The notes below the pieces were generated by a model. The model was not told where the DNA came from and did not search any database. It saw only the letters and a program-made list of their open reading frames with translations. Below, piece by piece: positions 11,845 through 33,035 of a stretch of 64,000 nucleotides of DNA. Made by a program: the position numbers and the translations under genes. This DNA is from Rhodobiaceae bacterium (GTDB lineage Bacteria; Pseudomonadota; Alphaproteobacteria; Rhizobiales; G965224185), in assembly GCA_965224185.1 (NCBI GenBank), contig OZ245042.1, positions 5,146,761-5,210,760 on the forward strand, given 5' to 3'. Each line of letters opens with the position of its first letter. The stretch's first letter is position 1.

Positions 11845-12600
11845 TCACAGATTGTATTTCCCGCCATCAACATTAATCGTCTGACCGGTGAGAAAATCGC
11901 TGTCAGGCGTGATCAGGAAAAGCAGTGAGCCGAGCAGATCTTCGGGCACCATTTCACGTTTGATCGAGCGCGACTGAACGGTTGGCGCGCGTGCGGGATC
12001 AAATCCGGTATGTCCTTGCAACGCCTCGCTCTCGGTGAGACCAGGCGCAATGGCGTTGACCTGGATGTTCTTGTCGCCCAGTTCGCGACCATGGCAGCGC
12101 GTCAGCGCGATCACAGCGCCTTTGGATGCCGTATAGTGCGAAAGGCCCGGAGGGCCGTAATAGAACGTGCCCGACGCGATGTTGACAATCTTGCCGCCAC
12201 CAGCCCGCATCATCGCCGGAACGACCGCCTTGGTCGCCTGATGCACGCCTCTGGTGTTGACGGTCATGACCTTGTCAAACTCGTCATTGTCGATTTGAAG
12301 AAACGGCTTGGGATCAAGAGCGGCAAAAATCGACGCGTTGTTGACAAGGATATTCAGGCTTCCGAATTCCTTTTCCGTCGCCGCGACCATCGTGGCGAGA
12401 TCGTCGTCCGACGTGACGTTGACGCTCAAACCAATCGCCGATCCACCTTGCGACATTATTTTCTCGACCGTCCCTGCCGTATCCAACACGTCGGTCACCA
12501 CCACGTTTGCGCCTTCCTGGGCCATGCGTTGCGCCATCTGTGATCCGATGCCGCGTGCTGCGCCCGTAATGACCGCGTTTTTTCCTGTTAGTCGGCCCAT
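11845..12600 (-). CDS. Short-chain dehydrogenase/reductase (SDR)
   Basis: TGAARGIG cofactor motif, NNAS, and the catalytic Y...K (YTASKGAV). The ATG at 12600 is preceded by aggagg. The track start at 12606 is a GTG inside the SD. Confidence 0.85.
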   Translation of the reverse strand: MGRLTGKNAVITGAARGIGSQMAQRMAQEGANVVVTDVLDTAGTVEKIMSQGGSAIGLSVNVTSDDDLATMVAATEKEFGSLNILVNNASIFAALDPKPFLQIDNDEFDKVMTVNTRGVHQATKAVVPAMMRAGGGKIVNIASGTFYYGPPGLSHYTASKGAVIALTRCHGRELGDKNIQVNAIAPGLTESEALQGHTGFDPARAPTVQSRSIKREMVPEDLLGSLLFLITPDSDFLTGQTINVDGGKYNL

Positions 12601-12614
12601 TTGCACCTCCTATT

Positions 12615-13436: not shown

Positions 13437-14872
13437 AGTTGCACCGTGACCCATTTGAGTTCTGTCATCGCTTCCATATCGGCGTCGGTGCCTTCCCGGC
13501 CGACACCGCTTTCGCCGTTGCCGCCGAACGGCACATGCGCTTCGTCATGGATTGTCGGGCCGTTTATATGGCACATGCCCGCGCCGATGTTACGGGCGAA
13601 ATGAAAAGCCTTGTCGATGTCCTTGGTGAAGATCGAGGAGGAGAGACCGTATTCGGTGTCGTTGGCCTTTTCGAGTCCTTCATCATAGCTGTCGATCGGG
13701 TAGATCGAGGTGACCGGCCCGAAAGTCTCGGCTTTGCAAACCGTCATGTCCTCGGAAACACCTGTCAGTAGCGTCGGCTGGCAGCGGTTACCGTCCCATT
13801 CCCCGCCGGTAACGACCGTTGCACCCTTGGCGACGGCATCGGCGATATGGTCCTTGACCCGTTGACGTTGGCGTTCGGAAATGATCGGTGCGATCACTGT
13901 ATTCGGATCGCGCAGATCGCCCATCCCGACTTTTGAGGCGACCATGGCAAAACGCTTGACGAACTCGTCGAAAATCGGGCGTTCGACATAGAACCGGCTG
14001 GACCCGATACAGGCCTGGCCAGCGAACATGAAGATCGACCGTGCGGCCAGCGGCATGACCTTGTCGAGGTCGGCGTCTGCCAGAATGACGGTCGGGCTCT
14101 TGCCGCCCAGTTCCAGCGTGTTTGGCGTCTTATTCTTCGCACAGACCTCGTTGATGTGCTGGCCGACGACTGTGGAACCGGTAAAGGTGACGAAATCGAC
14201 ATCCGTGTGGCTGGTCAGATAGTCGCCGATCTGGTGCCCGAAGCCGGTGACGACATTGTAGGAACCCGCCGGAAATCCGGCCTCGGCTACAATCTCGGCA
14301 AACAGTAGAGTCAGATGCGGCGCCATTTCCGACGGAAGATGCACAACTGTGTTTCCCACTGCCAGAGCATTGGCGGCCAGCCGCGTGGTCTTGATCAACG
14401 GTACGTTGAACGGCGTTATCACCGCGACGACGCCGAGCGGTTCGCGGATCGACATCGAAAACTTGCCCGGCGCGTCCGACGGAATGGTTTCGCCGCGCAC
14501 ATTGCGGCAAAGGCCGGCGGCCGCGCGGACCATGGTCAGGCCCTTCTCGAACTCAAACATGGCTTTCTGGACCGGCGAGCCGATCTCATCGATCAGGCAA
14601 TCGACCAGTTCGGCTTTGCGCTCCTCCATGATTTCCGCCACCCGCAGAAGCCAGCGTTCGCGGTCCTTGGGCGGTATTTCCTTGTATTCAGGAAAGGCGG
14701 CCTTGGCGGCGGCGACAGCGCGACCCATATCAGCGCCCGTGCCCCTGGCCGCATGGGCATACAGGCTGTCGTCGAGCGGATTCAGCACTTCGAAGGTCGC
14801 ACCGTCCTCGGCATCGACCCATTCGCCACCAATGAAGTGTCGAAGCGTTTTGAATTTGGTGTTTGTATCCAC
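13433..14872 (-). CDS. NAD(P)-dependent aldehyde dehydrogenase
   Basis: The ALDH motifs FTGST.VG, ELGGKSP and the catalytic Cys context FMFAGQACIGSSR are present. GTG 14872 is preceded by GGAG at 7 nt. The alternative ATG at 14905 (track ORF) overlaps dctM. Confidence 0.9.
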   Translation of the reverse strand: MDTNTKFKTLRHFIGGEWVDAEDGATFEVLNPLDDSLYAHAARGTGADMGRAVAAAKAAFPEYKEIPPKDRERWLLRVAEIMEERKAELVDCLIDEIGSPVQKAMFEFEKGLTMVRAAAGLCRNVRGETIPSDAPGKFSMSIREPLGVVAVITPFNVPLIKTTRLAANALAVGNTVVHLPSEMAPHLTLLFAEIVAEAGFPAGSYNVVTGFGHQIGDYLTSHTDVDFVTFTGSTVVGQHINEVCAKNKTPNTLELGGKSPTVILADADLDKVMPLAARSIFMFAGQACIGSSRFYVERPIFDEFVKRFAMVASKVGMGDLRDPNTVIAPIISERQRQRVKDHIADAVAKGATVVTGGEWDGNRCQPTLLTGVSEDMTVCKAETFGPVTSIYPIDSYDEGLEKANDTEYGLSSSIFTKDIDKAFHFARNIGAGMCHINGPTIHDEAHVPFGGNGESGVGREGTDADMEAMTELKWVTVQL

Positions 14873-14891
14873 GGTACGACTCCTGTTTCTA

Positions 14892-16253
14892 CTATCCGCC
14901 GACAATCGTCTGCGGCAGGAAAAGCGCGATTTGCGGGAAGAGGATGAGAAGGCCGATCATCGCGGCCATGGCGAACCAGAATGGCCAGATACCGCCAAAA
15001 ATTTGCCCCATCGGCACTTCGGGCGCGATGGATTTGACGATGAAGACATTGATGCCCACCGGCGGGCTGATCATGCCCATTTCCAGCACGATCACCACGA
15101 TGATTCCGAACCAGATCAGATCCCAGTCGAGTCCGAGCGCGATGGGGATCACGACCGGGATGGTCAGCACCAGCATGGCCATGGATTCCAGGAACATGCC
15201 GAGAAACATGTAAGTGAGGATGATGATCACCAGCACGCCGACATCGCCAATCGGTAGAGAGGTCAGGATTGTCACCAGTTGCGAAGGCAGTTCGGTCAGC
15301 GACATGAACGGGATAAAGACGAAGGCGCCGATGATGATGAGAAAGACGGTGGCTGTTGCATTCATCGTTTGCAGGATGACCGCACGCGTTGCCCGCCAGT
15401 TCAACGACCGGCGCCAAGCGGCAACGACGAAGGTGAGGAATGCACCAACCGAAGACGCCTCGACCGGCGTGAAGAAACCGGTATACATGCCGCCGATGGT
15501 GGCCAGCACAACGCCCAGGATCGGTGCCGCGCGCCAAAGCGACTCGATGCGCTCGGCCGTCCCCGACCGTTCGCCGCGCGGCCCTGCCTCGGGCTTGCGC
15601 GCCACAACCAGATAGATCGAGCCGATAAACAGCAGCGTCAGGATGATGCCGGGAAACACGCCAGCCATGAACAACCGGCCGATCGACTGATCGGTCAGCA
15701 CAGCGTAGATGATCATTCCGCCGGATGGCGGTATCAGGAAACCAAGCGTACCGCCCGCGGCGACCGATCCGGTGGCAAGACTGTCGGAATATTTGTAGCG
15801 CTTCATCTCGGGCAGCGCGACGCGGCCCATGGTGACGGCCGAGGCGAGTGACGAGCCGGACAACGCCGCGAAGCCGGCGCAGGCGGCGATCGTGGCCGAG
15901 GCCAGCCCGCCTTTCATGTGCCCCATCCAGCGATACGCGGCGGCGAACAGATCGTTCGACATGCCCGAGACCCCGGCCAGATTGCCCATCAGCACGAACA
16001 TCGGGATGACCAGCAGATTAAAGTTGGAGGCCGCCTCGAACGTTTCGCCGGCCAGGTTCGAATAGGCAATCTTCCAGCCCCGTGCCCAAGCCTGATCGGA
16101 AGCCATCCCGAGGCCGATGAACTTGTTGGCGTTGGCGATGATGGTTCCGACGAAGCCGACACTCAGCATCGACAATGCAACAGGCATGCGCAGCGCCAGC
16201 AGGATAAAAAGGATGAGCAAGCCCAACAGACCGAGGAGCGTCATGCTGATCAC
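14892..16253 (-). CDS. dctM: TRAP transporter large permease
   Basis: 453-aa polytopic membrane protein with a typical DctM sequence (ALSGSS.A....MG....PEM..Y.Y, GGTLG.LIPPS). Confidence 0.9.
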   Translation of the reverse strand: MISMTLLGLLGLLILFILLALRMPVALSMLSVGFVGTIIANANKFIGLGMASDQAWARGWKIAYSNLAGETFEAASNFNLLVIPMFVLMGNLAGVSGMSNDLFAAAYRWMGHMKGGLASATIAACAGFAALSGSSLASAVTMGRVALPEMKRYKYSDSLATGSVAAGGTLGFLIPPSGGMIIYAVLTDQSIGRLFMAGVFPGIILTLLFIGSIYLVVARKPEAGPRGERSGTAERIESLWRAAPILGVVLATIGGMYTGFFTPVEASSVGAFLTFVVAAWRRSLNWRATRAVILQTMNATATVFLIIIGAFVFIPFMSLTELPSQLVTILTSLPIGDVGVLVIIILTYMFLGMFLESMAMLVLTIPVVIPIALGLDWDLIWFGIIVVIVLEMGMISPPVGINVFIVKSIAPEVPMGQIFGGIWPFWFAMAAMIGLLILFPQIALFLPQTIVGG

Positions 16254-16789
16254 AGCCGGTCACCATCAATCCTGAGTGTCACGACCTTGTCGGTGCGCAG
16301 CAATTGCCAGATGTCAAGCAGGAGAACCATGGCGTAGACCGCCATCGAGATGGAGAGCAAATAGTAGAAAGGCTCGTATGAAATCAGAAGCTGCTGCGTG
16401 GTTTCGCCGAATTTCGCCGCGCTTCCTCCTGCGTGCCAGAGCCCCCACGCCATGATGACGAGAAGCACGGCGCCAAGTGCCTTGACGAGGATCTTCGACC
16501 ATTTCGCGAATCCCGCTGTCATGCGTGATTCCAGCACTTCAATTTCGATGTGCGCGCCGGTCCGCGCCCCAAATGGAATCGACAGCGCAACGATCAGAAC
16601 GAGCGACAGGATCAACAGATCCTCGGCCCCGATGATGGGCGAGTTCAGCGCCTTGCGCATGATCAGCACGTTGAAAACGCTGTAGGCGGTCATGGCTGCC
16701 AGCGTCGTGCCACCGAGCACCAATGAAATCCATCTCAGCGCCGTGTCGAGGTGCCTGACCGGACCGCGTAATTCAGACCTGTTTGACAC
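16250..16789 (-). CDS. dctQ: TRAP transporter small permease
   Basis: The hydrophobic C-terminal 180 aa of ORF 16250..17029. The upstream part overlaps the GST gene, so GTG 16789 is proposed as the start. The start is uncertain. Confidence 0.7.
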   Translation of the reverse strand: MSNRSELRGPVRHLDTALRWISLVLGGTTLAAMTAYSVFNVLIMRKALNSPIIGAEDLLILSLVLIVALSIPFGARTGAHIEIEVLESRMTAGFAKWSKILVKALGAVLLVIMAWGLWHAGGSAAKFGETTQQLLISYEPFYYLLSISMAVYAMVLLLDIWQLLRTDKVVTLRIDGDRL

Positions 16790-16803
16790 CGGATCAACTC
16801 TCG

Positions 16804-17565
16804 TCAGACTTTTGAAAAGTCTGGACACCACTTTAGGACACCTTGCCGGTAGCTTTCCTTGTCGTCGAAAGCGGCCGCCCAGCGTCGGATGTTCGGAAAG
16901 TCTTCGAACGAATAGCCGCAACCGAAGATCACGAAGTAAAGTGGGATCCATGAGATATCGGCCAGGGTGAACTGATCGCCCATGATCCAATCGCGCCCCT
17001 CCAGCGTTGCATCCAGCTTGGCGAAACAAGCCCCCAGTATTGCCTTCGCCTTCAGGAAATCACTGGTGCTGAATTCGCTGCTGCCGGCGTGCTTGGCATG
17101 AAAATTCTTCAGCTCTTCATTTTTCTGAAGCGAATCGTATTTTTCCTGTTCCTCGGCAGACTTCTTCAGTTTCTTGACCAACTTGGTCGCATAGACATAA
17201 GGCTTGCAGGCCGGCACATGGATCGCGGCGGCCAAATGCAGCCATTCCATCATGTCGTCATTGTCAGCGGCGCGCAGCGTCGGCTCTGGATAGGCTTCGT
17301 CCAGATAATCGATGATGTCGTTCGATTCGATGTGAACGACACCGTTGTCGATGAGTGTCGGCACCAGACCGTTCGGATTGATCCCGAAATAGTCGTCGGA
17401 AATGTTCTCTTTCTTCTTCAGATCGATATGATGGCTGGTCCAGTCCAGCCCCTTTTCGATCAGTGTCATGCGAACCCGCATGGAACAGTTCGAAATGGCG
17501 CCATGATACAGGTGCAGCCCCTTAAGAGACTCGACTGATTTGTTTGTCGGAACAATGACGACCAT
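16804..17565 (-). CDS. Glutathione S-transferase, paralog of 12615..13436
   Basis: LHLYHGAISNCSMRVRMTLIEKGLDW....ID..K.E.....YF.INPNGLVPTLIDNGVV..ESNDIIDYLD and FTLADIS align position by position with the other GST. The ATG at 17565 follows GGAGG. Confidence 0.7.
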   Translation of the reverse strand: MVVIVPTNKSVESLKGLHLYHGAISNCSMRVRMTLIEKGLDWTSHHIDLKKKENISDDYFGINPNGLVPTLIDNGVVHIESNDIIDYLDEAYPEPTLRAADNDDMMEWLHLAAAIHVPACKPYVYATKLVKKLKKSAEEQEKYDSLQKNEELKNFHAKHAGSSEFSTSDFLKAKAILGACFAKLDATLEGRDWIMGDQFTLADISWIPLYFVIFGCGYSFEDFPNIRRWAAAFDDKESYRQGVLKWCPDFSKV

Positions 17566-17722
17566 CGGAGGGCCCTCCATACCTTGGTGACCGATCTGGA
17601 AGCGTTTTGAGATTGGGTTGGCGCGCAACCCAATTTCGAAGCGCTGCGGAATTGGCGCCCCGGAAACGTGACTGGTTTAAATCTGCACGAATTGTCCGGG
17701 GCGCCTGCGCTCTGCTTGGGAG

Positions 17723-18733
17723 TTATTTGTTCAGCGCACCGTAAATCTCGCGGACATTCGAAATGCCGCGGCTTTCGTAGTCCGCGAAGATTGCCTCAAG
17801 CCCTTTGGCGACCGCGGCGTCCATCTTGGCCCGCTCTGCGTCCGAAACCACGGTCCATTTGTAGCCCTTATCAGTAGTTTCAGCGATAAGCTTTTTGGAG
17901 ACCTCGTCGGCACCGTCGAACGACTTTGCAAGTTCAAGCGACATCGGCAGGCCGGCAACGTCGTCGATGATTTTGCGGTGCTCGTCCGAGAGGCTCATAT
18001 AGCGCTCTTTGTTCATGATGGCGTAGGTGACGGCAAAGGTCGCGGGCACATTTTCAACGATGTAGGAAGACACGTCCCAGAAGTTCCAGGGCTGCGTGAT
18101 GTTGTTGTAGGACGCCGTGGTTGCGTCGATGGTGCCGGTCGATAGCCCGGTATACATCTCCGTCACCGGCATCTGTACCGGAACCGCGCCCAGCGCTTCG
18201 ATGATCGGGGTGGTCATGGCCGCGAAAGGAACGATCTTGGCGCCTTTCATGCCCTCCATGGTCGACACGTCACGAGTTGCCGCGAAAAGGTTTCCCGCAA
18301 CCGTGCCGACGGCCAGAACCTTCACGTCTTCATATTCGTCTGCGAGATGTTCGTCGTAGATGTTCCAGATGGCCCGGGTGGACTGATCTGCGTTCTCCGC
18401 CTTGCCCGGCAGGATGGCCAGCATGGTCTTCGGGAAGAGCGCAGGTGTGTAGCCCGAAACACCGAAGGTGATGTCGGCAACGCCCTCAACGGCGCGCTTG
18501 TACTGCTGTACCGGACCAGCGCCCAGTTGACCCGCCGGGTAGAGTTTCATGGTCAAAGTGCCGCCGGAGCGCTTTTCGATCTCCTTGGCGAACCAGGTGA
18601 ACATGCCGGTGTTGGTGTGGTGCTGTGGCGGCAAGAAGGTCGCAACGGATAGCTCTTCACTGGCTGCGGTTTGCACGGAAAGACCAAGCCCGATTGCGAA
18701 CGCCATAGGCACCGGGAAACGTGAGAAATTCAT
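17723..18733 (-). CDS. dctP: TRAP transporter substrate-binding protein (DctP family)
   Basis: 336 aa with a signal peptide (MNFSRFPVPMAFAIGLGLSVQTAAS), a DctP-like body and an SD aggagga before the ATG at 18733. Confidence 0.9.
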   Translation of the reverse strand: MNFSRFPVPMAFAIGLGLSVQTAASEELSVATFLPPQHHTNTGMFTWFAKEIEKRSGGTLTMKLYPAGQLGAGPVQQYKRAVEGVADITFGVSGYTPALFPKTMLAILPGKAENADQSTRAIWNIYDEHLADEYEDVKVLAVGTVAGNLFAATRDVSTMEGMKGAKIVPFAAMTTPIIEALGAVPVQMPVTEMYTGLSTGTIDATTASYNNITQPWNFWDVSSYIVENVPATFAVTYAIMNKERYMSLSDEHRKIIDDVAGLPMSLELAKSFDGADEVSKKLIAETTDKGYKWTVVSDAERAKMDAAVAKGLEAIFADYESRGISNVREIYGALNK

Positions 18734-18770
18734 GGTATCCTCCTAAAGTTGACGGCGCAGTCCGGATCGA

Positions 18771-18958
18771 TGGGATCCCAATTCCCGGGAAGTTCATTTA
18801 AACCCGCAGGGTCGACTCCATCCCTTCATATTTAATACCGTTTTGGGATCCCATATCAAGCTAAAGTTTGAAATCTGAGCACGAATTTGTCGATTCGGTG
18901 CTCTTTCGGATACAAAGTGAATGCATATATTATTGCATAACTTGACTTTGGGATCCCA
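18771..18958. promoter_or_regulatory. Three copies of the palindrome TGGGATCCCA in the dctP/gntR divergent promoter region
   Basis: Exact TGGGATCCCA at 18771-18780, 18844-18853 and 18949-18958. The last copy is preceded by ATGCAtatattatTGCATaa. Candidate GntR operator sites. Confidence 0.6.
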
Positions 18959-18976
18959 TGCGTGATCAATAACCGG

Positions 18977-19735
18977 ATGGAATCGATTGACTCAGAACTT
19001 GCCGCACGAATCCGCCAGGACATCATTATGGGTGTCTTTAAGGAAGGGGAGCGCCTGTCGGAGACACGACTGTGCGACATTTACAACGTTTCACGCACAC
19101 CAATTCGGTTGGCGTTGCGACTTCTCGAACGCGAGAAGCTCATCCGCCGAGGTGAAGGCCGGGGCTACATTATTTTCAGCCCGACGGTCGAGGAAATCCT
19201 TCAGGCGGTACAGGTGCGTGGCCACCTGGAGAGCCTTGCCGCACGGCTCATGGCGCAATCTGAAATGCGAGCGCAACACCTGCCCCACATGGCCCGCGCA
19301 ATCGAAACGATCGGCGAAGTGTTGCGTCGCGGCGTTCTGGATGATCCCGCTATCCGCGAGGCGCAGAAAGCCAACAAGGTTTTTCATACAACGATCTTGG
19401 CTGCGTGTGGCAACGACTATGTCGGATACACATGTGAACAGATTAGTTATTTGCCGATGCTGGCTGCCGGTTCGATGGTTTTCGACCGCTCCACCAGCAA
19501 GTCACCAGATCACATGGAACGCGGCCTGTTCAGGCTGCAGTTGGGAAACGCCCAGCATCAGGTGATTTACGAGGCCATTGAAAAAGGTGACGCTGTTCGG
19601 GCTGAAGGTATGATGCGCGAGCACTCGCACACCATGATCGACTACATTCAGACCTTCGAACGAAAAGACGATAGCCTAACAGTGGCCGACCTGATCGCCT
19701 ATTCAGGCGCGGAGCCGCTCACAATGGGTCGTTAG
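18977..19735 (+). CDS. GntR family transcriptional regulator (FadR/FCD-type)
   Basis: wHTH LSETRLCDIYNVSRTPIRLALRLLEREKLI plus a helical FCD-like C-terminal domain. The start is ATG 18977, or GTG 18962 as in the track. Confidence 0.85.
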   Translation: MESIDSELAARIRQDIIMGVFKEGERLSETRLCDIYNVSRTPIRLALRLLEREKLIRRGEGRGYIIFSPTVEEILQAVQVRGHLESLAARLMAQSEMRAQHLPHMARAIETIGEVLRRGVLDDPAIREAQKANKVFHTTILAACGNDYVGYTCEQISYLPMLAAGSMVFDRSTSKSPDHMERGLFRLQLGNAQHQVIYEAIEKGDAVRAEGMMREHSHTMIDYIQTFERKDDSLTVADLIAYSGAEPLTMGR

Positions 19736-19791
19736 CGCCGAACCAGTTTCCAGATTGGGCGCGAAATTCAACAGGCCCCAAGTGACATTTG

Positions 19792-21090
19792 CTACCGCAT
19801 TAAGTTGGGAAGCCAAGTTGCGATTTCCGGAATCGCGAATAATAGCAGCAAGCCCGCGAGCATCGAGAAAATGAACGGTGTCACGCCGATAAACATTTTG
19901 GCGAGATCAACGTCGCTGACAACCGCTTTGACCGTGAAAACGTTCATACCGATCGGTGGGGTGATCAGCCCTAGTTCGACAACCAGGATAATGATTATCC
20001 CGAACCAGATCATGTCCACGTCCAGCGCGCTCAGCGAAGGCAGGAAAACCGGCACGACCAGCAGCAAGATCCCAAGGGATTCAAAGATCATCCCCAAGAG
20101 AACGCAGACGAAGCAGATCCCGAGTACCAACTGAATAGCGGAAATGGCGCCTTCGCCCTGAACCAACTCAACAAGCTCAAAAGGCATGCCGGTAATATTG
20201 ATGAACTGAGCCAGCATCATACCGCAAATCACAATGGTAAAAATCATTGCTGTGGTTTTGACGGTATCCAAAAAGACATGCAGGAGTTCAGGCCAATTGC
20301 GCAAACGACCCCGGGAAACGGCGAAAATAAAGGCGAAGAACGCGCCGACTGCCGCCGATTCCGTTGGGGTAAAAATACCTGTGTATATGCCCCCGAGGAC
20401 CAGGGCGAACAGCAATACGATCGGCCAGGATGCTCTTGAGGCGCGAAGCTTCTCCGCCCAGGTCGTCGCTTCACCGGGAGGGCCCGAATTGGGAAACAGG
20501 CGTACAACGACCGCTATGCCAACGAGGAACAATGAGACCAGCATGAGGCCAGGAACGATCCCCGCGATGAAGAGCTTTCCGATATCCTCTCCCACGATGA
20601 TCCCGTAGATCACCATCGGCACCGATGGTGGGATCATGATACCAAGCGTGCCGCCCGCGGCGATTGTACCGGTCGACAACGCATCATTATAACCAAAGCG
20701 CCGCATCGGGGGCATGGCGACCCGGCTCATGGTTGCAGCGGTGGCCAATGACGATCCGCTAACTGCTGCAAAACCGGCGCAAGCGAAAACGGTGGCCATC
20801 GCAACCCCGCCCTTTAACCGGCCCAGCCAAGCATAGGATGCCTCGTATAGCTCGTCGGAAATTCCTGCCCTGTGTATGAATGTCCCCATCAGAATGAACA
20901 GCGGAACGACAGACAGGCCGAGATTCATGGTCATCTCGATGATCCATTGGCCGGTAACCGCAATGGAGGCATCGATGCCGCGATATGCAGCAAATCCCAC
21001 GACACCGACAACAAGTGTCGCATACCCCAACGGCACGCCGATAAAGCTGAGAACCAGTACGATCGCCAGTCCGATGAGTGCCTCCGCCAT
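19792..21090 (-). CDS. dctM: TRAP transporter large permease
   Basis: ORF 19792..21273. The true start is probably ATG 21090 (MAEALIGLAIVLVL...), just after the dctQ stop at 21099. The sequence is DctM-like throughout. Confidence 0.9.
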   Translation of the reverse strand: MAEALIGLAIVLVLSFIGVPLGYATLVVGVVGFAAYRGIDASIAVTGQWIIEMTMNLGLSVVPLFILMGTFIHRAGISDELYEASYAWLGRLKGGVAMATVFACAGFAAVSGSSLATAATMSRVAMPPMRRFGYNDALSTGTIAAGGTLGIMIPPSVPMVIYGIIVGEDIGKLFIAGIVPGLMLVSLFLVGIAVVVRLFPNSGPPGEATTWAEKLRASRASWPIVLLFALVLGGIYTGIFTPTESAAVGAFFAFIFAVSRGRLRNWPELLHVFLDTVKTTAMIFTIVICGMMLAQFINITGMPFELVELVQGEGAISAIQLVLGICFVCVLLGMIFESLGILLLVVPVFLPSLSALDVDMIWFGIIIILVVELGLITPPIGMNVFTVKAVVSDVDLAKMFIGVTPFIFSMLAGLLLLFAIPEIATWLPNLMR

Positions 21091-21098
21091 GACGATCT

Positions 21099-21584
21099 CT
21101 AGTCCGCTGATCCGTGGCTGGTCGGTCCTTTGGTGAACACTCTGATACCCGCCACCAACGAGAAAGCGACCAGGACGACGAGCGCGGATATGATCCAGAC
21201 AAACGGGATTTCGAGACCTTCGGTGGCGTCTTCGTAGATAAACGAATCCCTGGCCGCCACGATCAGCACCCACAACAGGAAACCTGTTCCAAGCGTATTG
21301 CTGATCGCATAGATCAGGACGTAGAGTTTCGGTGAGAACTGATTGATAATCGGCTCAAATATCGAAACGACGATATGGCTGCCGTCGCGACTGACAAGGA
21401 TGAAGCCGGCAAAAACCGTCAGCGTCAGTAGGATTTGCGTTAATTCCGCGCTTCCCGATACCGGGGCGGAAAACACATAGCGCATGAACACGTCGACGAC
21501 GGTCAGCAGCATCATCAAGGCGAGCAATACCGACCCGACAATCAGTGCGACGCGACTGATCAAGCCCACGACCTTGTCAAACAT
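21099..21584 (-). CDS. dctQ: TRAP transporter small permease
   Basis: 161-aa protein with four TM segments, placed between dctP and dctM. Confidence 0.8.
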   Translation of the reverse strand: MFDKVVGLISRVALIVGSVLLALMMLLTVVDVFMRYVFSAPVSGSAELTQILLTLTVFAGFILVSRDGSHIVVSIFEPIINQFSPKLYVLIYAISNTLGTGFLLWVLIVAARDSFIYEDATEGLEIPFVWIISALVVLVAFSLVAGIRVFTKGPTSHGSAD

Positions 21585-21647
21585 CGTCTGCCTTTTCGAA
21601 TGTGAAACGGGCCAGGCTCCCGCTGCTAGAAACCTGGCCAGCCCGCA

Positions 21648-22691
21648 TCAATTGGCGTTGATCTTGCTCAGACGCTCGACTTCTGAGCGCATGAAGTCCA
21701 GCGCGGCCTGACCATCGACGCCCATACCGTCGACCTTGGCAATCCAGTCTTTGGCAATCGATTGCGAGTTCTCTTTGAGACTTGCCATCAACGCGTCCGA
21801 CGGCGGGTGGTACTTGACTGTTTTGGCAAGCTTGTCACGGCCTTTCAGGGCCTGTTGGTTCACCTTTACCCCGACCATGCGCGCCAGGTGCTCTCCCGAC
21901 AGGTCGGTCAGGACCTTTTGGTCCTCTGGTGACAGGCTGTTCCACGTCCTTGCATTGATGAAGTGGGTGAAATTGATCGAGAACAGCGACTTTTCAAACT
22001 GTATGCAGGACTTCGTGTAGCTGTCGATCTTGAACTGTAGAATGGAATCGTAAGTGATCCCGGTATAGGCCTCTACGACATTGCGCGAGACGATTTCGTG
22101 GATCTGGACGGCCGGACCGGTCACGGTCGCGACACCCATTTTCTTCAGGATCTTGTCCAGGTTCCCCTTGAGTGACCAGACCTTGCGGGTGGTCAGATCG
22201 TCCGCCGATGCGATCTGCCCATCCGTCAGCGAACACAGTGCTCCGCCCGCGAAATGGTACATGCCCAGAAGGTGGACACCCCGCCATTTTTCAGTGTCCG
22301 CAAAGAACTTCTGATAGGTGTTCCATAGCGCGACCGATGTCGCCTCGGAGTCCCCCTGATGCACCCAAGGCATCATGCCCACATGCGCACCGGGATTCTT
22401 CGGGCTAAGATAGATATTGGCGATGAAGCCGGCATCCGCCGCACCCTTGCGAACGGCGTCCATAACCTTCGGCGGCGGCGCAACCGATTTGGGCGTGAAC
22501 TCGATCGTGAGGCGGCCTTCGGATTTTTTGTGTACTTGATCGGCCCAATCGTTCATCACTTCCCAATAGAAGTGGCTGGGCGGAACGAAAATATTGAACA
22601 GAATTTTCGTTTTCGCAGCGGCCGAAAGCGGCGTCAGCAACGCGCAAGCCAACCCTGCCAGCGCCGCGTTTTTAAAGAACTTCAGGGGCAT
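21648..22691 (-). CDS. dctP: TRAP transporter substrate-binding protein (DctP family)
   Basis: 347 aa with signal peptide MPLKFFKNAALAGLACALLTPLSAAA and an SD ggaggag upstream. Confidence 0.85.
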   Translation of the reverse strand: MPLKFFKNAALAGLACALLTPLSAAAKTKILFNIFVPPSHFYWEVMNDWADQVHKKSEGRLTIEFTPKSVAPPPKVMDAVRKGAADAGFIANIYLSPKNPGAHVGMMPWVHQGDSEATSVALWNTYQKFFADTEKWRGVHLLGMYHFAGGALCSLTDGQIASADDLTTRKVWSLKGNLDKILKKMGVATVTGPAVQIHEIVSRNVVEAYTGITYDSILQFKIDSYTKSCIQFEKSLFSINFTHFINARTWNSLSPEDQKVLTDLSGEHLARMVGVKVNQQALKGRDKLAKTVKYHPPSDALMASLKENSQSIAKDWIAKVDGMGVDGQAALDFMRSEVERLSKINAN

Positions 22692-22735
22692 TTCTTCTCC
22701 TCCAATAGTCAGTTTCCAGGTCGGGTTGCGCGCGG

Positions 22736-24373
22736 TCAGGCCGTGTTTGACGGCTTGCGCGTCGGCAGGATTTCGGGGTTCTTGCCCGCCGCATCAGTTT
22801 CATCCCAGTATCCAATGAGCACGCCCAATTGCTCTTCCATGCCGGTCATCTGGAGATTGTGTTCTTCCGACCAGGTCTCGCGCTGACGATACTGCAGTGA
22901 CCACTCGGCGAGGCGATCGAACATTGACCGGCGGATGTCGGCATGGTCCGGACTACATCCAAGATCGACCAATTCGCCGGGATCACGGACCAGATCGAAC
23001 AGCACCGGCGGATACCCCGGCGCGTATATGTATTTCCATTCCTGGGTGGCGATCATGTACGAACGGCAGTCGAGCGGCATCCGTCCGGTCTCGGGCCGGA
23101 AGACCTGGCATGAATAGTCGTATTCGCTGATGGCGAAGTCCCGCCACTCGGTGTCCTCGCCCCGAAGCTTTGGCAATAGAGAGCGCCCGTCCAGGATGTT
23201 TTTGGCCACCGACCCTCCTTGGTATTCAATAAAGGTCGGGAGCAAATCAATCGACTCGACCAGGGAATCGTCGACTGTTCCACGTGTTCCGTCAGCGGAT
23301 GCACTCGGGTCGACGATGATCAGGGGGATTTTTACGGCGGGGTCGTGGAAGTAGTCTTTGTCGCCCATCCAATGGTCGCCGAGATAGTCGCCGTGGTCGG
23401 ACGTGAAAACGATCAAGGTGTCATCAAACAATCCACGCTCGCGCATAAATTCAAACAAGATCCCGAGCTGATCGTCGATTTGGGAAATCAGCCCCATATA
23501 AACAGGAATGACGGTTTCCCGAGCTATTTCCTTGCCGAAGGTCTTTCCTGCGACCCGGCTCATGAAATGCCGGACAAGCGGATTCGGATCGACCAACTCT
23601 CCGTCGGATTTGACGGCCGGGATAACGTCGCCCGCTGAATACATGTCATTGTATGGCGCTGGCGCGATATAAGGCCAATGCGGCTTGATGTAGGACAGAT
23701 GAAGCAGCCATGGCGTCTGGCCGCCGTCCTGGCTAAGGAAATCCATCGCCCGCCTCGTCATATAGGGCGTCTCCGAATCGTCCTCGCAGACCCTGGCGGG
23801 CAAATTGGCCTGATCGTTGAAGAATCCCGACCGAACCTGCCGACCGGTATCGACCGCGTTGGCAGCCCAATGCCACGGATTGTCGTCTTCGGTATGTCCC
23901 TTGGACTTCAGGTATTCGTTATATGCCAGATTGGGGCGAACCATCGTATCGGGGTGCACACCGTCGTCGCGCTCGAAAGCCTCAAATCCGGCTTGGGAAT
24001 GATGAACTCCGATGTAACTGTCGGGATCGACACCAAGTCTTTCCATTCCCTCTTTATCAGCAACCATGTGCGTTTTGCCGACCAAAACAGTACGCACCCC
24101 AAGCGGGTTAAGGTGGTGTCCAATATTTTTTTCACCGATGCGCAGTGGCGTGAAGTTGGAGGTCGCTCCATGCGAGGATACATAGCGACCGGTATAGGTG
24201 CTCATCCGCGACGGGCCGCAAATTGGTGACTGGCAATAGGCATTGCTGAACCGCACGCCGCGCGCCGCCAGCGCGTCGATGTTGGGGGTCTTTATCGTTG
24301 GATGTCCACTGCAACCCAGATAGTCAAACCTCAGTTGATCGCACATGATGAACAGAATGTTTTTGCGCGCCAT
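22736..24373 (-). CDS. Type I (formylglycine) sulfatase-family hydrolase, phosphonate-monoester-hydrolase (PMH)-like, cytoplasmic
   Basis: NILFIMCDQLR, the signature C-G-P-S-R (C-x-P-x-R) in SPICGPSRMSTYTG, and later LHLSYIKPHWPYIAPAPY, TSDHGDYLGDH and LFDLVRDPGE. The overall pattern resembles Rhizobium PMH as I remember it. No signal peptide. Confidence 0.8.
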   Translation of the reverse strand: MARKNILFIMCDQLRFDYLGCSGHPTIKTPNIDALAARGVRFSNAYCQSPICGPSRMSTYTGRYVSSHGATSNFTPLRIGEKNIGHHLNPLGVRTVLVGKTHMVADKEGMERLGVDPDSYIGVHHSQAGFEAFERDDGVHPDTMVRPNLAYNEYLKSKGHTEDDNPWHWAANAVDTGRQVRSGFFNDQANLPARVCEDDSETPYMTRRAMDFLSQDGGQTPWLLHLSYIKPHWPYIAPAPYNDMYSAGDVIPAVKSDGELVDPNPLVRHFMSRVAGKTFGKEIARETVIPVYMGLISQIDDQLGILFEFMRERGLFDDTLIVFTSDHGDYLGDHWMGDKDYFHDPAVKIPLIIVDPSASADGTRGTVDDSLVESIDLLPTFIEYQGGSVAKNILDGRSLLPKLRGEDTEWRDFAISEYDYSCQVFRPETGRMPLDCRSYMIATQEWKYIYAPGYPPVLFDLVRDPGELVDLGCSPDHADIRRSMFDRLAEWSLQYRQRETWSEEHNLQMTGMEEQLGVLIGYWDETDAAGKNPEILPTRKPSNTA

Positions 24374-24660
24374 TGGACTATCACCGCTCAGAACATTTGT
24401 TTTACTTGTGCTTTACCACCCAATTTGAGCGGCACGTACATGTAGGGCCACTGCTGACCATTCGCACTTTGAGGCCAGAACGTTCTGGAAAATTCGAGTT
24501 GGTGCAGGGGTCATCTGCATGCCGCTATATCCTCCCTTTGAGCTCCCGAACGGGACAGCCGTCAATCCGCGGCTCGCGCTCTATTTGTTCAAAATTGAAT
24601 TCGCAGCCGAGAACCCGAGCCCATCTTCTGAATGAAGTAGGCAGGCACATATTGCATAAA

Positions 24661-24731
24661 TGGGATCCCAAAACAATTGAATTCTGTATGTAATCCAAAA
24701 ATCCTCGATAAATCTTGATTTTGGGATCCCG
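24661..24731. promoter_or_regulatory. Two further copies of the TGGGATCCC(A/G) palindrome in the sulfatase/MBL-sulfatase divergent promoter region
   Basis: TGGGATCCCA at 24661-24670, preceded by attgcataaa as at 18931-18940. TGGGATCCCG at 24722-24731. Confidence 0.6.
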
Positions 24732-24867: not shown

Positions 24868-26145
24868 ATGCACCCGGAACTGAAATCCCATCCCGACTAC
24901 TTTCAAAAGGAAGTGGTTCAGCTTGCAGACAACGTCTACATGGCTTTCGGCTATGCGGCATCGAATGTGTTCATGATCAAAGGAGACGACGGGATCATCA
25001 TCGTCGACACGGCTGAGACGACCAGTGCCGCCGAAAACATCCTGTCGGAGTTCCGCAAGATCACCAATCTTCCAGTGAAAACCATCATCTACACCCATTC
25101 GCACCGCGACCACGTATCCGGCGCAAGTGTCTTTGCCGAAGGCGGAGCGCCTGAGGTATTGGCGAGTACCAGATTTTCCGACGATTCTCTGTTCGTCGCC
25201 TCTGAACATCCGTTACCGACCAAGGCGATGCAGGTGCGCACCAAGCGGCAGTTCGGCATCGGACTGTCCTATCCGGACGAGATCATCGGCATCGGCGTGG
25301 GTCCGGGTGACCGGCCCTTGGCCGGCATGGGCGCCGGTGCGTTGTCCCCGACCCGTCGGATAGGTGACGAGGGTGAAAGCATATCCATCTGCGGCGAAGA
25401 CCTGCAACTGGTCATGGCCCCCGGCGAGACCCCCGATCACATGGTCGTCTGGTATCCGAAAAAGAGAGTGCTGTTCTCAGGCGATAATTTTTACCGTTCC
25501 TTCCCGAATCTCTATGCCATTCGCGGCACGGCATACCGGGATTTTGATGCCTGGGCCGATACGATGGATCAGCTCATGGCCTTTGAACCGGAGGTTCTGG
25601 CCCCCGGCCACACAAAAGCGATCATTGGCGCGAACCAGATCAAGGAGGTGCTGACCGATTACCGCGACGCCATTCGCCATGTCGTCGATGAAACACGCTA
25701 TGGCATGGACGCCGGGCTGACCATCGACCAATTGGCACACTGCGTCAAACTGCCGGAGGAACTGGCTGCCAAACCCCATCTGCGCGAATATTACGGCCGG
25801 GTTGACTATGCGGTGCGCGCCTATTTCGTCGGCACAATGGGCTGGTTTGACGGCAATCCGACATCGCTGGCCTCACTCGCCCCGGATGACGAGGCCAATC
25901 GGTTTATTGAGATGGCCGGTGGCGCGGATGCGGTATTTGAGGCGGCGGCGAAAGCCCGAAACAACGGGGAATATCAATGGGCGCTGCAATTGATCGACCG
26001 TTTGATCTATTCCGATGGAAACGCGGCGCGGGCAATTGCAATGAAAGCAAAAGTCCTGAACGACTATGCGCAGGGCCAAATCAACTGCCCGACGCGCCAC
26101 TATTACCTGCAATGCGCAAAAGAGCTGTCAGCCTCCGGGCGCTAA
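24868..26145 (+). CDS. MBL-fold alkyl/aryl-sulfatase-like protein (type III sulfatase; MBL plus dimerisation domain, no SCP2 tail)
   Basis: THSHRDH metal motif and an alkyl-sulfatase dimerisation-domain-like region (YYGRVDYAVRAYFVGTMGWFDGNPTSL...GEYQWALQLIDRLIY). The ATG at 24868 follows ggaggag. The protein ends right after the dimerisation region. Confidence 0.75.
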   Translation: MHPELKSHPDYFQKEVVQLADNVYMAFGYAASNVFMIKGDDGIIIVDTAETTSAAENILSEFRKITNLPVKTIIYTHSHRDHVSGASVFAEGGAPEVLASTRFSDDSLFVASEHPLPTKAMQVRTKRQFGIGLSYPDEIIGIGVGPGDRPLAGMGAGALSPTRRIGDEGESISICGEDLQLVMAPGETPDHMVVWYPKKRVLFSGDNFYRSFPNLYAIRGTAYRDFDAWADTMDQLMAFEPEVLAPGHTKAIIGANQIKEVLTDYRDAIRHVVDETRYGMDAGLTIDQLAHCVKLPEELAAKPHLREYYGRVDYAVRAYFVGTMGWFDGNPTSLASLAPDDEANRFIEMAGGADAVFEAAAKARNNGEYQWALQLIDRLIYSDGNAARAIAMKAKVLNDYAQGQINCPTRHYYLQCAKELSASGR

Positions 26146-26319: not shown

Positions 26320-27504
26320 CTACCCGTCCTTGATATCACCCGCGCAGATCGTGTTCAGGCTGTGCGCAGCGTCGCCTTGGAAGATGTCTTCGGGGTGTTT
26401 GGCTTCGACGAGAACGAGATCGCCGCGTTTGCCTGTCGCAATTGTGCCGATTTCGGCGGCCGCGCCAAGGGCCTCGGCGGCGTTGGTGGTTATCGCCCGT
26501 ACCGCCTCAACCGGCGTCAGGCCGTATCGTGTGATGCCGAGCCGGGCAGCCGAAACGATGTTGAGATCACCCGTAGCGTCGGGACCGGCTTCCGTGGAGA
26601 TCGCTATCTTCACCCCCGATGCACGCATATCGTCGATCAGCGGCATTTGGCTGTCCTGGTCACGGATGGCAATCTGTGGGACGAGCACCGCGACACCACC
26701 GCTCGAAGCGATCGCGGCGACGCTCAGCGCATCGGATCGACACAGGAATGTTGCCGCTTGCGAGTTGAACGAGGCGGGCAGGGTCGCGCCGGCTGAATCT
26801 GAAAACCGATCGCAAGCAACGCGCGTCGGCGTTTTCTTCCTGTAAAACAGCTCAAGGACCGCGCTCGCCTGATCAAGGTCCAGGCCGGCCGCGTCATCGC
26901 AAAACACCTCCACGGCATCACACGCGCCGTGCTCATAGGTCTTCGGCATGAGGCCGGCCTCGATATCGGCGAGATGGTCGTCCGGGTCCCGATCCCGGGC
27001 AATGAAATGACCGGCAAACAGGGTGACCCGCGACAGGTTGGGCATTTCCGCCTGAAGCCTGCGGCACACAAGCGCGAGCCGGAATTCGTCCCGCGGCGTC
27101 CGGCCGAAGCCGGACTTCAGTTCGAACGCGGTAACGCCGCTTCGTGCCAATTTCGCAAGGCGCCGGCGCATGGATGCAAGCAGATTTTGGTCGTCAGCCG
27201 CGCTGGTCGCGGTCGCAACGGCTTGAACGAAGTCACGATAGTCCTGCGCCGACAGGCGCTCCGGCGCATCGACCCCAGGCGCCCAACATACGGTATTGTG
27301 ACAGGCGACGAAGCCGGGCAGGGCAAGCCGGCCGTCCATGGATGTCGCGTCGGCCAGATCACCGGCGAAGCCGGTCCTCGGTCCGGCATAGGCAATCAGA
27401 CCATCGCTGATTTCGACAACCGCATCCTCGATCAGTCCACAGGGATCGTCGGCGACCGGAACCATGGTCGCTAGATTCAGGTTTGTCAGAACCAGGTTGC
27501 CCAT
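26320..27504 (-). CDS. hutI: HutI-like (imidazolonepropionase-related) amidohydrolase of cmu clusters
   Basis: Amidohydrolase-fold N-terminus (IEDAVVEISDGLIAYAGP...LPGFVACHNT). Its position after paaE matches published cmu clusters. The start is ATG 27504. Confidence 0.7.
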   Translation of the reverse strand: MGNLVLTNLNLATMVPVADDPCGLIEDAVVEISDGLIAYAGPRTGFAGDLADATSMDGRLALPGFVACHNTVCWAPGVDAPERLSAQDYRDFVQAVATATSAADDQNLLASMRRRLAKLARSGVTAFELKSGFGRTPRDEFRLALVCRRLQAEMPNLSRVTLFAGHFIARDRDPDDHLADIEAGLMPKTYEHGACDAVEVFCDDAAGLDLDQASAVLELFYRKKTPTRVACDRFSDSAGATLPASFNSQAATFLCRSDALSVAAIASSGGVAVLVPQIAIRDQDSQMPLIDDMRASGVKIAISTEAGPDATGDLNIVSAARLGITRYGLTPVEAVRAITTNAAEALGAAAEIGTIATGKRGDLVLVEAKHPEDIFQGDAAHSLNTICAGDIKDG

Positions 27505-27515
27505 TGCGATCGCGC

Positions 27516-28598
27516 TCAAAGCTCGTCGAAATCGATGCGGACATGACGCGATGTCGGCTGCGCCAGGCAAGCCAGCACCAGTCCGTCCTCAAGGTCACAT
27601 TCCCGCAACGTCTTCAAAACCCCCGACCGCACCAGTGCCGTGCCGTAAGTGAGCTTGGCGATACAAGACGAACAGTCCCCTTCCTGGCAGGAAAACGGCA
27701 CATCGGCATCGATGCGCAGCAGAGCCTCGAGGATGGATTCTCCGTCTTTAGGTGCAACGTGGTTCTCTTCGCCGTTCATAACGGCCGTGATCTGTCGGCA
27801 TGATCCTTCCTCGCCGGGCGCCTTGGACACCACCGGGATAGGCGGGCCGTCATCGTCGTCGTTCAAGACAAGGTCAAAGCTTTCCCTGCGAATGTCGCGG
27901 TTGCCGAGACCAAATCCCATCAGTACCGATTCCGCTACATCCATGAACGGCTCAGGGCCGCACAGATAGGCACTCATGGGCAGGTTGCCGCGTCTCGCCC
28001 ATACCGGCAGGCGATCCTCAAGATATGTTCTGTCGACGCGCCCGCGGGAACCGGCCCAATCTGCGCCAACGCGCGAAAACACATGTTCGATCTCGGCCAG
28101 GGGGTGATCGCACAATGCCTCCAGATCGTCGCGGAGAACGACATGGTCGGGCGTGCGATTGCCACAGACAAGGGTAATCACCTGGTCGGGCCCCGCATCG
28201 AGCAGGCTCCTTGCGATGGGGATCATCGGCGCAACGCCGCTCCCGGCCGCCAGCAACAATGTATGACGTGGTTCCTCCGGAGGCTTGAAAAACACGCCGC
28301 GTGGCGGGGCAACCTGCAGAACATCACCGACCACCGTCTGATCGACGAGCCATGATGACATTCTGCCCTCCGGCACCTTCTTTGCCGTAATCCGAAAGCC
28401 CGCGGCCCGATCCGGGCTTGAGCTTATCGAATATTGCCGCAACAGAACCTCACCGCGAATTTCCTGTTCAATCGTAATGAATTGCCCGGCGCGGTGAGAA
28501 AACGTGGTGTCGAGGTCCCGCGGGACGTCAAACCACAGGCTCGCCGCATCGCGCCCCTCGGCCTGCTTTGCAGTGATTGTCAACGGATAGGTCGCCAT
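27516..28598 (-). CDS. paaE: PaaE-like ferredoxin:NAD(P)H oxidoreductase (FNR-like plus plant-type 2Fe-2S)
   Basis: RQYSISS FAD motif, AAGSGVAPM NAD-binding motif, and a C-terminal C-x4-C-x2-C (FSCQEGDCSSC) with a later Cys. The start is ATG 28598. Confidence 0.85.
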   Translation of the reverse strand: MATYPLTITAKQAEGRDAASLWFDVPRDLDTTFSHRAGQFITIEQEIRGEVLLRQYSISSSPDRAAGFRITAKKVPEGRMSSWLVDQTVVGDVLQVAPPRGVFFKPPEEPRHTLLLAAGSGVAPMIPIARSLLDAGPDQVITLVCGNRTPDHVVLRDDLEALCDHPLAEIEHVFSRVGADWAGSRGRVDRTYLEDRLPVWARRGNLPMSAYLCGPEPFMDVAESVLMGFGLGNRDIRRESFDLVLNDDDDGPPIPVVSKAPGEEGSCRQITAVMNGEENHVAPKDGESILEALLRIDADVPFSCQEGDCSSCIAKLTYGTALVRSGVLKTLRECDLEDGLVLACLAQPTSRHVRIDFDEL

Positions 28599-28605
28599 CC
28601 GGGGC

Positions 28606-28896
28606 TCAATCCTCCTCTGCGCCGCGCGCCGCGCGAATTTGCTTGGCAAAGGGATTGGGCCGGCTCAGTTTGACATGGCATCGGCAGGGATAGTCGTGAC
28701 CGCAAGTCTTGGCCTTGGGAGTCGCGTCCTTATCCGGCTTGGCGCCGGTGAGGATGTTGACCGCCATCACGGGCGCCACGCGCATGGTGCCGCCGCATGC
28801 GGTGCAGGCCAGTTCAAGGTCTCGCGATTCCTCGAACCCGATGGAAGCTTCGCGGCTGCGGCCGCAGTCTTCACAGCGAAAATCGTATCGTGGCAT
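28606..28896 (-). CDS. fmdB: FmdB-family zinc-ribbon protein
   Basis: MPRYDFRCEDCG...CTACGG is a CxxC...CxxC zinc ribbon of the FmdB/CxxC_CxxC_SSSS type. Confidence 0.75.
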   Translation of the reverse strand: MPRYDFRCEDCGRSREASIGFEESRDLELACTACGGTMRVAPVMAVNILTGAKPDKDATPKAKTCGHDYPCRCHVKLSRPNPFAKQIRAARGAEED

Positions 28897-33008: not shown

Positions 33009-33035
33009 CACTCCTCCTCTCGCCCTTGCCTCCGT

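Follow-up and report, generated by a model that had tools for sequence, protein, structure and literature searches.

A conserved palindrome and a predicted GntR-family repressor in a TRAP transporter and sulfatase gene cluster of a Rhodobiaceae bacterium

Described VanR-group regulators and the GntR regulator of the window

The described systems closest to the locus studied here are the regulators Atu1419 of Agrobacterium fabrum and VanR of Caulobacter crescentus. Atu1419 (structures 6z74 and 6za3) is a repressor that binds three identical copies of a 10-bp palindrome, ATGTATACAT, distributed over two promoter regions; the protein forms a tetramer and loops DNA, with Arg45 reading the G of position 3 (PMC7797058). 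VanR is likewise a repressor, and its operator vanO, ATTGGATCCAAT, is a perfect palindrome, one copy of which lies immediately upstream of the −35 element and the other overlaps −10 and +1 (PMC5377333). Here, we analysed a gntR gene and five copies of a short palindrome, TGGGATCCC(A/G), in a 64-kb stretch of the genome of a Rhodobiaceae bacterium (assembly GCA_965224185.1, contig OZ245042.1, positions 5,146,761–5,210,760; hereafter the window). All five sites (O1–O5; Table 1) were intergenic, three between dctP and gntR and two between a sulfatase gene and a gene for a metallo-beta-lactamase (MBL)-fold protein. A first-pass annotation had proposed that the palindromes are GntR operators joining four transcription units, and this proposal was supported by 80 related loci, in which the motif travels with gntR and recurs before the same target genes.

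The protein encoded by gntR is an FCD-type GntR regulator. Its GntR domain (PF00392) was matched with an E-value of 2.7e-16 and 59.4 bits (cutoff 27) at residues 12–69 of the longer open reading frame (ORF), and its FCD domain (PF07729) with an E-value of 6.4e-14 and 52.9 bits (cutoff 24.3). The nearest solved relative by sequence was Atu1419 (6z74, E 5.5e-22), at an identity of ~26%. In the AlphaFold2 model (mean pLDDT 80), long helices were found at residues 71–93, 98–118, 123–143, 147–156, 177–202, and 206–226. The 12 best PDB matches in a fold search with this model were all Atu1419 chains (TM score 0.67–0.75), whereas FadR chains reached 0.35–0.47. The effector domain of the FadR group has seven helices and is domain-swapped (PMC7797058), unlike the six-helix model obtained here, which matched FadR structures poorly. 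On the strength of the six long effector-domain helices and the Atu1419 fold matches, the modelled protein falls into the FCD subfamily's VanR group, following the definition in PMC7797058.

The conserved DNA-contact residues E29, R40, T41, and R44 of the window regulator aligned with Glu34, Arg45, Thr46, and Arg49 of Atu1419. In the sequence alignment, H137, H194, and H216 corresponded to three Atu1419 histidines and were invariant in 22 orthologues. Several members of the VanR group have a metal site made up of three conserved histidines and an Asp or Asn (PMC7797058), for which the three aligned residues are candidate ligands. Each system uses a perfect 10-bp palindrome in which position 3 is G and the centre is AT; several identical copies of it overlap promoter elements in two promoter regions, and both systems have auxiliary sites at distances that would allow looping. 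They differ in the half-site (TGGGA here and ATGTA for Atu1419), in the spacing of the sites (61–73 and 109–190 bp, respectively), and in the targets, which are TRAP transporters, glutathione S-transferases (GSTs), and sulfatases here instead of hydroxycinnamate genes. The effector of Atu1419 is N5,N10-methylene-tetrahydrofolate; the likeness of the window regulator to Atu1419 covers sequence, fold, and operator.

The comparison with VanR was made by operator and gene arrangement. In both systems, a GntR-type regulator gene is divergent from a target operon, and palindromes with a common GGATCC core (ATTGGATCCAAT for vanO and the extended consensus tTTGGGATCCCAAa here) lie in the intergenic region. 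However, the half-site TGGGA differs from the TTGGA of vanO by an extra G:C pair per side, and the sites described here fill the spacer directly past the predicted −35. Some source databases label the GntR orthologues as a vanillate-catabolism regulator. No Rieske-type oxygenase or vanAB gene was found among the site-flanked genes of the window and the 80 loci. The sole VanB-like reductase, at 27516–28649, lacks a site and is part of a neighbouring cmu-like cluster. Judged by its differing half-site and by targets without vanAB, the window regulator is not VanR sensu stricto. Operators of the FadR type in the FCD subfamily follow the consensus t.GT.N(0-3).AC.a. The window motif resembles them in being a short palindrome with one half-site for each winged helix-turn-helix and with symmetric G and C about an A/T centre. 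The window motif, vanO, and the Atu1419 operator have in common a central AT together with G at position 3 and C at position 8.

Distribution of the palindrome in the window and in related loci

Exact copies of TGGGATCCCA were found at four positions when both strands of the window were searched (O1–O4), and the fifth site (O5), TGGGATCCCG, matched at 9 of 10 positions; neither strand of the 64 kb contained a sixth match. Counted per strand, there were 9 matches compared with 0.63 expected, and this count was reached in none of 100 dinucleotide-preserving shuffles. The five positions given in the first-pass annotation were exact, and its statement that the sites are limited to two divergent promoter regions agreed with this search. 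The 8-mer core GGGATCCC had a single extra copy in the window, at 45251 (GGGGATCCCG). Sites with one or two mismatches showed no excess (30 matches against 42.8 expected), which indicated that the signal was carried by the five near-perfect sites only. With an 18-bp weight matrix derived from orthologous sites, the five sites scored 16.9–24.8 bits, and the runner-up, located at 53245 within a coding region, scored 11.8 bits. A decayed fourth site in the dctP/gntR gap, TCGGATACAA, had been missed in the earlier reading. At its position, an exact site was found in one close relative (L005), a site with one mismatch in another (L002), and recognisable cores in three more (L001, L004, and L006).

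When each GTDB species was represented by a single genome, a scan yielded 463 stretches with relatives of the regulator, and the best 80 loci (1.47 Mb) were analysed. Their GntR orthologues showed 63–87% identity and belonged to Rhodobacterales, Hoeflea, Labrenzia, Puniceispirillaceae, and the gammaproteobacterial Granulosicoccaceae, a breadth of taxa that rules out recent common descent of a single intergenic region. These loci contained 155 exact copies of TGGGATCCCA and 149 copies with one mismatch, whereas the other 19 palindromes of equal half-site composition, taken as a control, occurred 0–9 times each. Footprinting of orthologous intergenic regions, which the first-pass annotation had suggested as a check, revealed exact sites in the 300 bp upstream of gntR for 74 of the 80 loci; a site with at most one mismatch was present in 79, and at least two sites in 71. 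The density of exact sites upstream of gntR was 5.4 per kb, ~300-fold that found elsewhere (0.017 per kb). The offsets from the gntR ATG were fixed at −28 (as in the window), −91, and −164, and for offset −28, 51 of 66 loci had an exact copy and 59 a copy with at most one mismatch. The 10-mer was flanked by symmetric T/A at 77 and 59%, giving the extended consensus. The recognition helix VSRTP(I/V)RLALR was invariant in all 80 orthologues, in line with the invariant operator; given this invariance, no covariation of operator variants with the helix was visible among the 80. The operator is unusually sharp and conserved, which makes it a clean marker of the regulon.

Outside the regions upstream of gntR, 25 exact copies were counted in 1.45 Mb, and those examined were located at other promoters of the cluster. 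No exact site lay within a genuine coding region of the 80 loci. Longest-ORF calling had placed 89 exact sites in ORFs, all of which proved to be 5′ over-extensions or spurious antisense ORFs, and homology-based gene starts were used in the loci instead. The near-absence of the motif outside cluster promoters in the window and the 80 loci ruled out a genome-wide element of the repetitive extragenic palindromic (REP) type. A broader form of this explanation is that the palindrome is a dispersed repeat, either REP-like or resembling a miniature inverted-repeat transposable element (MITE), or a target of restriction-modification or methylation. It draws some support from the BamHI site GGATCC and the GATC contained in the palindrome, and from an inverted-pair repeat of low-GC metagenome contigs that is centred on the same 10-mer. 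However, GGATCC occurs 24 times in the window and is not avoided; the motif is almost confined to cluster promoters, at fixed positions, in the window and in the loci; and apart from a brief A/T-rich extension and elements of the promoters, the flanks of its copies have nothing in common. The flanks of the metagenome repeat are different, and it lies in unrelated low-GC DNA. We regarded a repeat or a restriction or methylation target as extremely improbable, and the way the sites are distributed excludes it for this part of the genome.

This metagenome repeat was observed in many contigs of the set L081–L200, with 36–41% GC, where TGGGATCCCA centres an element of ~38 bp, such as TGCTATGCACACTTTGGGATCCCATCGTGTTTACATCC. 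The element forms inverted pairs 60–76 bp apart, for example at 4736–4821 of L130 and 9061–9146 of L189, and sometimes arrays, and it is a repeat family unrelated to the operator. Among the matches listed in the metagenome scan for site pairs, the relevant contigs were L104, L115, and L150. The Tara Oceans contig L104 (40% GC) was found by the motif alone and carried the whole cluster, gntR included. At 250–520 of L150, a contig with 70% GC, the start codon of a GntR-like gene abuts TGGGATCCCA, and another site, TTGACATTTGGGATCCCAAAAG, lies before a divergent gene with the N-terminus MARIIGGIGSSHVPTIG. We take this N-terminus to resemble a LigB-type extradiol dioxygenase. A distant relative of the regulator seems to use the same operator type before a likely aromatic ring-cleavage gene.

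Promoter layout and the proposed mode of repression

An ungapped alignment of 67 upstream regions gave the gntR layout cTTGACT-T-TGGGATCCCA-N7-(G)TCAAT-N6-ATG. On the opposite strand, the dctP layout was CTTGAAA-TGGGATCCCA; in the window, CTTGATA is followed on the minus strand by O2, and orthologues keep CTTGA(A/T)(A/T)TGGGATCCCA. The sulfatase layout was TTGATT-TGGGATCCCA-N6/7-GATAT. Its hexamer reads TTGTTT ahead of O4 on the minus strand of the window and TTGATT in orthologues, and the −10-like element, TG(C)GATAT or CAATAT, was found 16–17 nt past −35 in 25 orthologous regions. At the MBL gene, the layout was TTG(A/C)(A/T)(T/C)-N-(T/A)GGGATCCC, with TTGATT, TTGCAT, or TTGCAC, one base, and then the site in orthologues. 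In each of the four putative promoters, a conserved TTGNNN hexamer ends 0–1 nt before the site, which takes up the spacer.

The −10-like hexamer of gntR, (G)T(C/G)AAT at the equal position in orthologues, is situated 6 nt before the ATG, and no Shine-Dalgarno sequence was found ahead of the gene; the gntR mRNA is thus probably leaderless. The N-terminus MESID... (MESIDSELAARIRQDI) is conserved across all orthologues. The sole database protein with 100% identity, P0001 (235 aa), begins at the internal Met18, and in view of the conserved MESIDSELAARIRQDI, gntR is probably annotated too short in the source record of P0001. Such a short annotation would fit a leaderless start without a ribosome-binding site.

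The first-pass annotation had also pointed to a 9-mer, ATTGCATAA, shared upstream of two sites at 18932–18940 and 24651–24659. The copy at 24651 reads ATAT(T/C)GCAC in orthologues and was retained as a conserved promoter element, and the copy at 18932 was set aside as not conserved. At least two copies of the 9-mer occurred in 5 of 100 shuffles, and its gap to the palindrome is 8 nt in one case and 1 nt in the other; with only one copy conserved, the shared 9-mer is weak evidence.

The distances between neighbouring sites peaked at 61–64 bp (n = 76, of which 22 were exactly 61 bp) and at 72–75 bp (n = 36). These peaks correspond to ~6 and ~7 helical turns, so that neighbouring sites would face the same side of the helix, which makes cooperative binding or looping likely. 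O1 and O2, 73 bp apart, fall into the conserved 72–75 bp class. The site nearest dctP was located 37–43 nt upstream of its start codon in 46 of 56 loci, and O1 probably belongs to the dctP operon's 5′ untranslated region, where it may act as an auxiliary or looping site.

We propose that the palindromes, with the consensus tTTGGGATCCCAAa, are operators of the adjacent GntR repressor and occlude four promoters, and we assign this reading a probability of roughly 0.8. Without effector, a GntR dimer would bind each palindrome, one winged helix-turn-helix per TGGGA half-site. The bound protein would keep RNA polymerase off the promoters of the dctP operon, gntR, the sulfatase-dctPQM operon, and the MBL gene, as suggested by the position of O2–O5 directly behind a −35-like hexamer and inside the promoter spacer. 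GntR would repress its own promoter via O3, and a dimer of dimers might bind cooperatively or form loops between neighbouring sites, as for Atu1419. A catabolic intermediate of the transported compound would then release the repressor. This regulatory logic is a textbook one, a divergent and autoregulated GntR repressor with short palindromic operators, similar to VanR and Atu1419.

Several points weigh against this proposal. The promoter hexamers were read by eye and the −10 elements are weak, and a generic sigma-70 promoter and terminator scan called none of the putative promoters; their assignment rests on conservation, because strict sigma-70 criteria are unsuited to these alphaproteobacterial promoters. 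The scan of the source genome covered the 64-kb window. A full-text literature search for the motif returned BamHI cloning primers only. The loci were picked via the GntR gene, so that the association was tested mainly one way, and the reverse test, the metagenome scan for site pairs, was swamped by the unrelated low-GC repeat.

This choice of loci, and the fact that the cross-genome data show co-occurrence and not contact, leave some room for another explanation, namely that the palindrome is bound by a factor encoded elsewhere and that the linkage to gntR reflects a shared catabolic island. On the other hand, no regulator gene besides gntR was seen in the cluster's conserved core, and the 28-bp offset to its start was constant across alpha- and gammaproteobacteria, as autoregulation predicts. 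The invariant recognition helix parallels the invariant motif, the motif has the shape of VanR-group operators (PMC5377333; PMC7797058), and contig L104, recovered by the motif, carries a gntR orthologue. A factor encoded elsewhere was considered quite improbable on this basis.

It is also conceivable that GntR acts on a genuine site as an activator or a dual regulator instead of a simple repressor. Some FCD-type GntR proteins activate transcription, for example FadR at fabA, and the −35 and −10 assignments made here were drawn from the sequence. One of the Caulobacter vanO sites, moreover, is situated immediately upstream of −35 (PMC5377333). However, the start of the sites 0–1 nt past TTGNNN at four promoters, with the spacer filled, is the classic occluding position, and a site in the spacer of gntR's own promoter fits negative autoregulation. 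Among characterised proteins, its nearest relatives, Atu1419 and VanR, both act as repressors (PMC7797058; PMC5377333). Activation was judged unlikely, and repression by GntR remained the preferred reading.

An unusually long region of 288 nt (24374–24660) lies between the sulfatase promoter and the sulfatase start codon. Within it, a 33-codon ORF runs from 24520 down to ~24420 on the minus strand, preceded by GGGAGGA as a ribosome-binding site. We considered that the region might be a leader peptide or riboswitch and rejected this, as its length ranged from 31 to 318 nt in 25 orthologues and only the promoter and operator were conserved. The region is probably a lineage-specific insertion.

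Genes of the predicted regulon and neighbouring genes

The features of the window are listed in Table 1. Operon 1 combines a TRAP transporter (dctP, dctQ, and dctM) with two GSTs, an aldehyde dehydrogenase (ALDH), and a short-chain dehydrogenase/reductase (SDR), and operon 2 combines a second TRAP transporter with a PehA/PMH-like sulfatase. For the divergent MBL-fold protein, no domains other than the two listed in Table 1 were matched, and translation most likely starts at the ATG of position 24868, preceded by GGAGGAG as a ribosome-binding site.

Table 1. Coordinates of the regulator gene, predicted operators and promoter elements, and genes of the two predicted target operons and their surroundings in the window.
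Feature	Coordinates	Strand	Remarks
OsmC-domain fusion protein	10248–11429	−	393 aa; Pfam OsmC; cluster-associated, operon membership uncertain
Target operon 1	11845–18733	−	Pfam; genes tightly spaced or overlapping
SDR	11845–12606	−	Operon 1
GST1	12615–13454	−	Operon 1; larger GST, LigF-like; best solved relative beta-etherase LigF, 4xt0, E 6e-26
ALDH	13433–14905	−	Operon 1
dctM	14892–16253	−	Operon 1
dctQ	~16250–16800	−	Operon 1
GST2	16804–17628	−	Operon 1
dctP	17723–18733	−	Operon 1
O1, predicted operator TGGGATCCCA	18771–18780	.	Exact match; 38 nt upstream of dctP start codon
O2, predicted operator TGGGATCCCA	18844–18853	.	Exact match; putative dctP-promoter spacer (minus); top matrix score, 24.8 bits
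Predicted −35 TTGATA, dctP operon	18854–18859	−	Abuts O2; CCCATTTCAAG pattern kept in orthologues; putative promoter role
Decayed site TCGGATACAA	18906–18915	.	3 mismatches; 62 bp from O2
Predicted −35 TTGACT, gntR	18942–18947	+	Top-conserved columns of the 67 upstream regions (cTTGACTTTGGGATCCCA)
O3, predicted operator TGGGATCCCA	18949–18958	.	Exact match; putative gntR-promoter spacer, 28 bp before ATG; predicted autoregulatory site
Predicted −10-like ATCAAT, gntR	18965–18970	+	17 nt past −35, 6 nt ahead of ATG
gntR	18977–19735	+	FCD-type GntR regulator, VanR group by model, 252 aa; Pfam GntR and FCD
Target operon 2	19792–24373	−	Pfam and NCBIfam
dctM2	19792 to ~21100–21273	−	Operon 2
dctQ2	21099–21584	−	Operon 2
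dctP2	21648–22691	−	Operon 2
PehA/PMH-like sulfatase	22736–24373	−	Operon 2
Predicted −10-like CAATAT, sulfatase	24649–24654	−	Overlaps ATTGCATAA at 24651–24659; putative promoter role
O4, predicted operator TGGGATCCCA	24661–24670	.	Exact match; putative sulfatase-promoter spacer (minus)
Predicted −35 TTGTTT, sulfatase	24671–24676	−	Abuts O4
Predicted −35 TTGATT, MBL gene	24715–24720	+	Window reads cTTGATTT, then TGGGATCCCG
O5, predicted operator TGGGATCCCG	24722–24731	.	9/10 match; putative MBL-promoter spacer, 61 bp from O4
MBL-fold alkyl-sulfatase-like protein	24868–26145	+	425 aa; Pfam Lactamase_B and Alkyl_sulf_dimr
HutI-like amidohydrolase	26320–27570	−	cmu-like cluster
PaaE-like (VanB-like) ferredoxin reductase	27516–28649	−	cmu-like cluster; no site
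MtaA/CmuA methyltransferase fused to corrinoid-binding domain	28961–30817	−	cmu-like cluster; 618 aa; TIGR01463, 427 bits (cutoff 235)
URO-D-like protein	30850–32106	−	cmu-like cluster; 418 aa
MtrH-like methyltransferase	32103–33011	−	cmu-like cluster

The gene order beside gntR, dctP-(GST2)-dctQM-ALDH-GST1-SDR, was kept in most of the 80 loci, with an OsmC fusion or a sulfatase gene nearby. The OsmC fusion occurred in 41 loci, in a position downstream of the SDR gene or right behind gntR. In the window it is separated from the SDR gene by 415 bp without a site, and a comparison of the protein with the PDB gave zero matches. In ~30 loci, sulfatase orthologues (70–83% identity) were preceded by the motif and divergent from an MBL orthologue, and the gap between the two genes contained a site pair, whose spacing was mostly exactly 61 bp, the distance also seen in the window. 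In ~15 loci, sites were found near a second sulfatase paralogue, 27–30% identical to the window sulfatase.

In eight loci that were examined (L020 at 18046–19301, L032, L046, L048, L056, L078, L008, and L010), sites, often paired at 62–65 bp, preceded a gene for a periplasmic protein of ~350 aa, and the second sulfatase paralogue was nearby in most of them. This protein is conserved (...NLTSNTAGAGT...LKDGQTGT...NGPPRG...), and we presume from its resemblance that it is a TAXI-family TRAP binding protein. It would be a member of the regulon beyond those encoded in the window.

The organic-anion transporters, the two or three sulfatase types, and the LigF-like GST, second GST, SDR, and ALDH together suggest that a sulfate ester is taken up and desulfated and that glutathione-dependent steps follow. 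The suggestion of the first-pass annotation that the product of the sulfatase-family enzymes enters the GST pathway is plausible, as the genes are co-regulated, according to the predicted sites, and co-localised in many genomes. The beta-aryl-ether pathway of Sphingobium SYK-6 (LigD/LigF/LigG) offers a lead for the regulated enzymes only: like it, operon 1 has an SDR, two GSTs, and an ALDH, whereas the sulfatases and TRAP transporters of the window regulon have no equivalent in the Lig pathway. None of the cluster enzymes reached an NCBIfam equivalog cutoff. The depositors' names of solved TRAP binding proteins were generic and gave no ligand hint, although 7nr2 and its relatives may bind aromatic acids, and literature searches for the gene combination returned no description of the cluster and no characterised homologue.

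The regulon was found in roseobacters, Hoeflea, Labrenzia, SAR116-like Puniceispirillaceae, and Granulosicoccaceae, that is, in many marine alphaproteobacteria and some gammaproteobacteria, and record titles or isolate names of some of the metagenome-assembled genomes suggest invertebrate-associated or open-ocean samples. As a tentative idea, which we hold to be possible although doubtful, this marine regulon may specify a glutathione-dependent pathway, hitherto undescribed, for an organic acid that is sulfated and perhaps aromatic, in which PehA-like and MBL-type sulfatases would act with the LigF-like GST, the second GST, the SDR, and the ALDH. If so, the VanR-like repressor would be a ready-made sensor for a pathway metabolite. 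Used beside VanR/vanO, the repressor and operator could also provide an orthogonal system. The regulon ties TRAP and TAXI transporters to two or three kinds of sulfatases, two GSTs, an SDR, and an ALDH, and with the repressor and operator in hand, there is a direct way to the inducer and hence to the substrate. Its main value is as a handle on an uncharacterised and widespread marine catabolic cluster.

Beside the MBL gene, the gene content of the minus strand at 26320–33011 matches the chloromethane (methyl halide) utilisation cassette cmuB-cmuC-cmuA-paaE-hutI. The gene order also presumably matches that of the cassette. This cmu-like cluster contains no TGGGATCCCA and is thus placed outside the GntR regulon. 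The gene types found there are listed as cmu cassette genes (PMC4949252).

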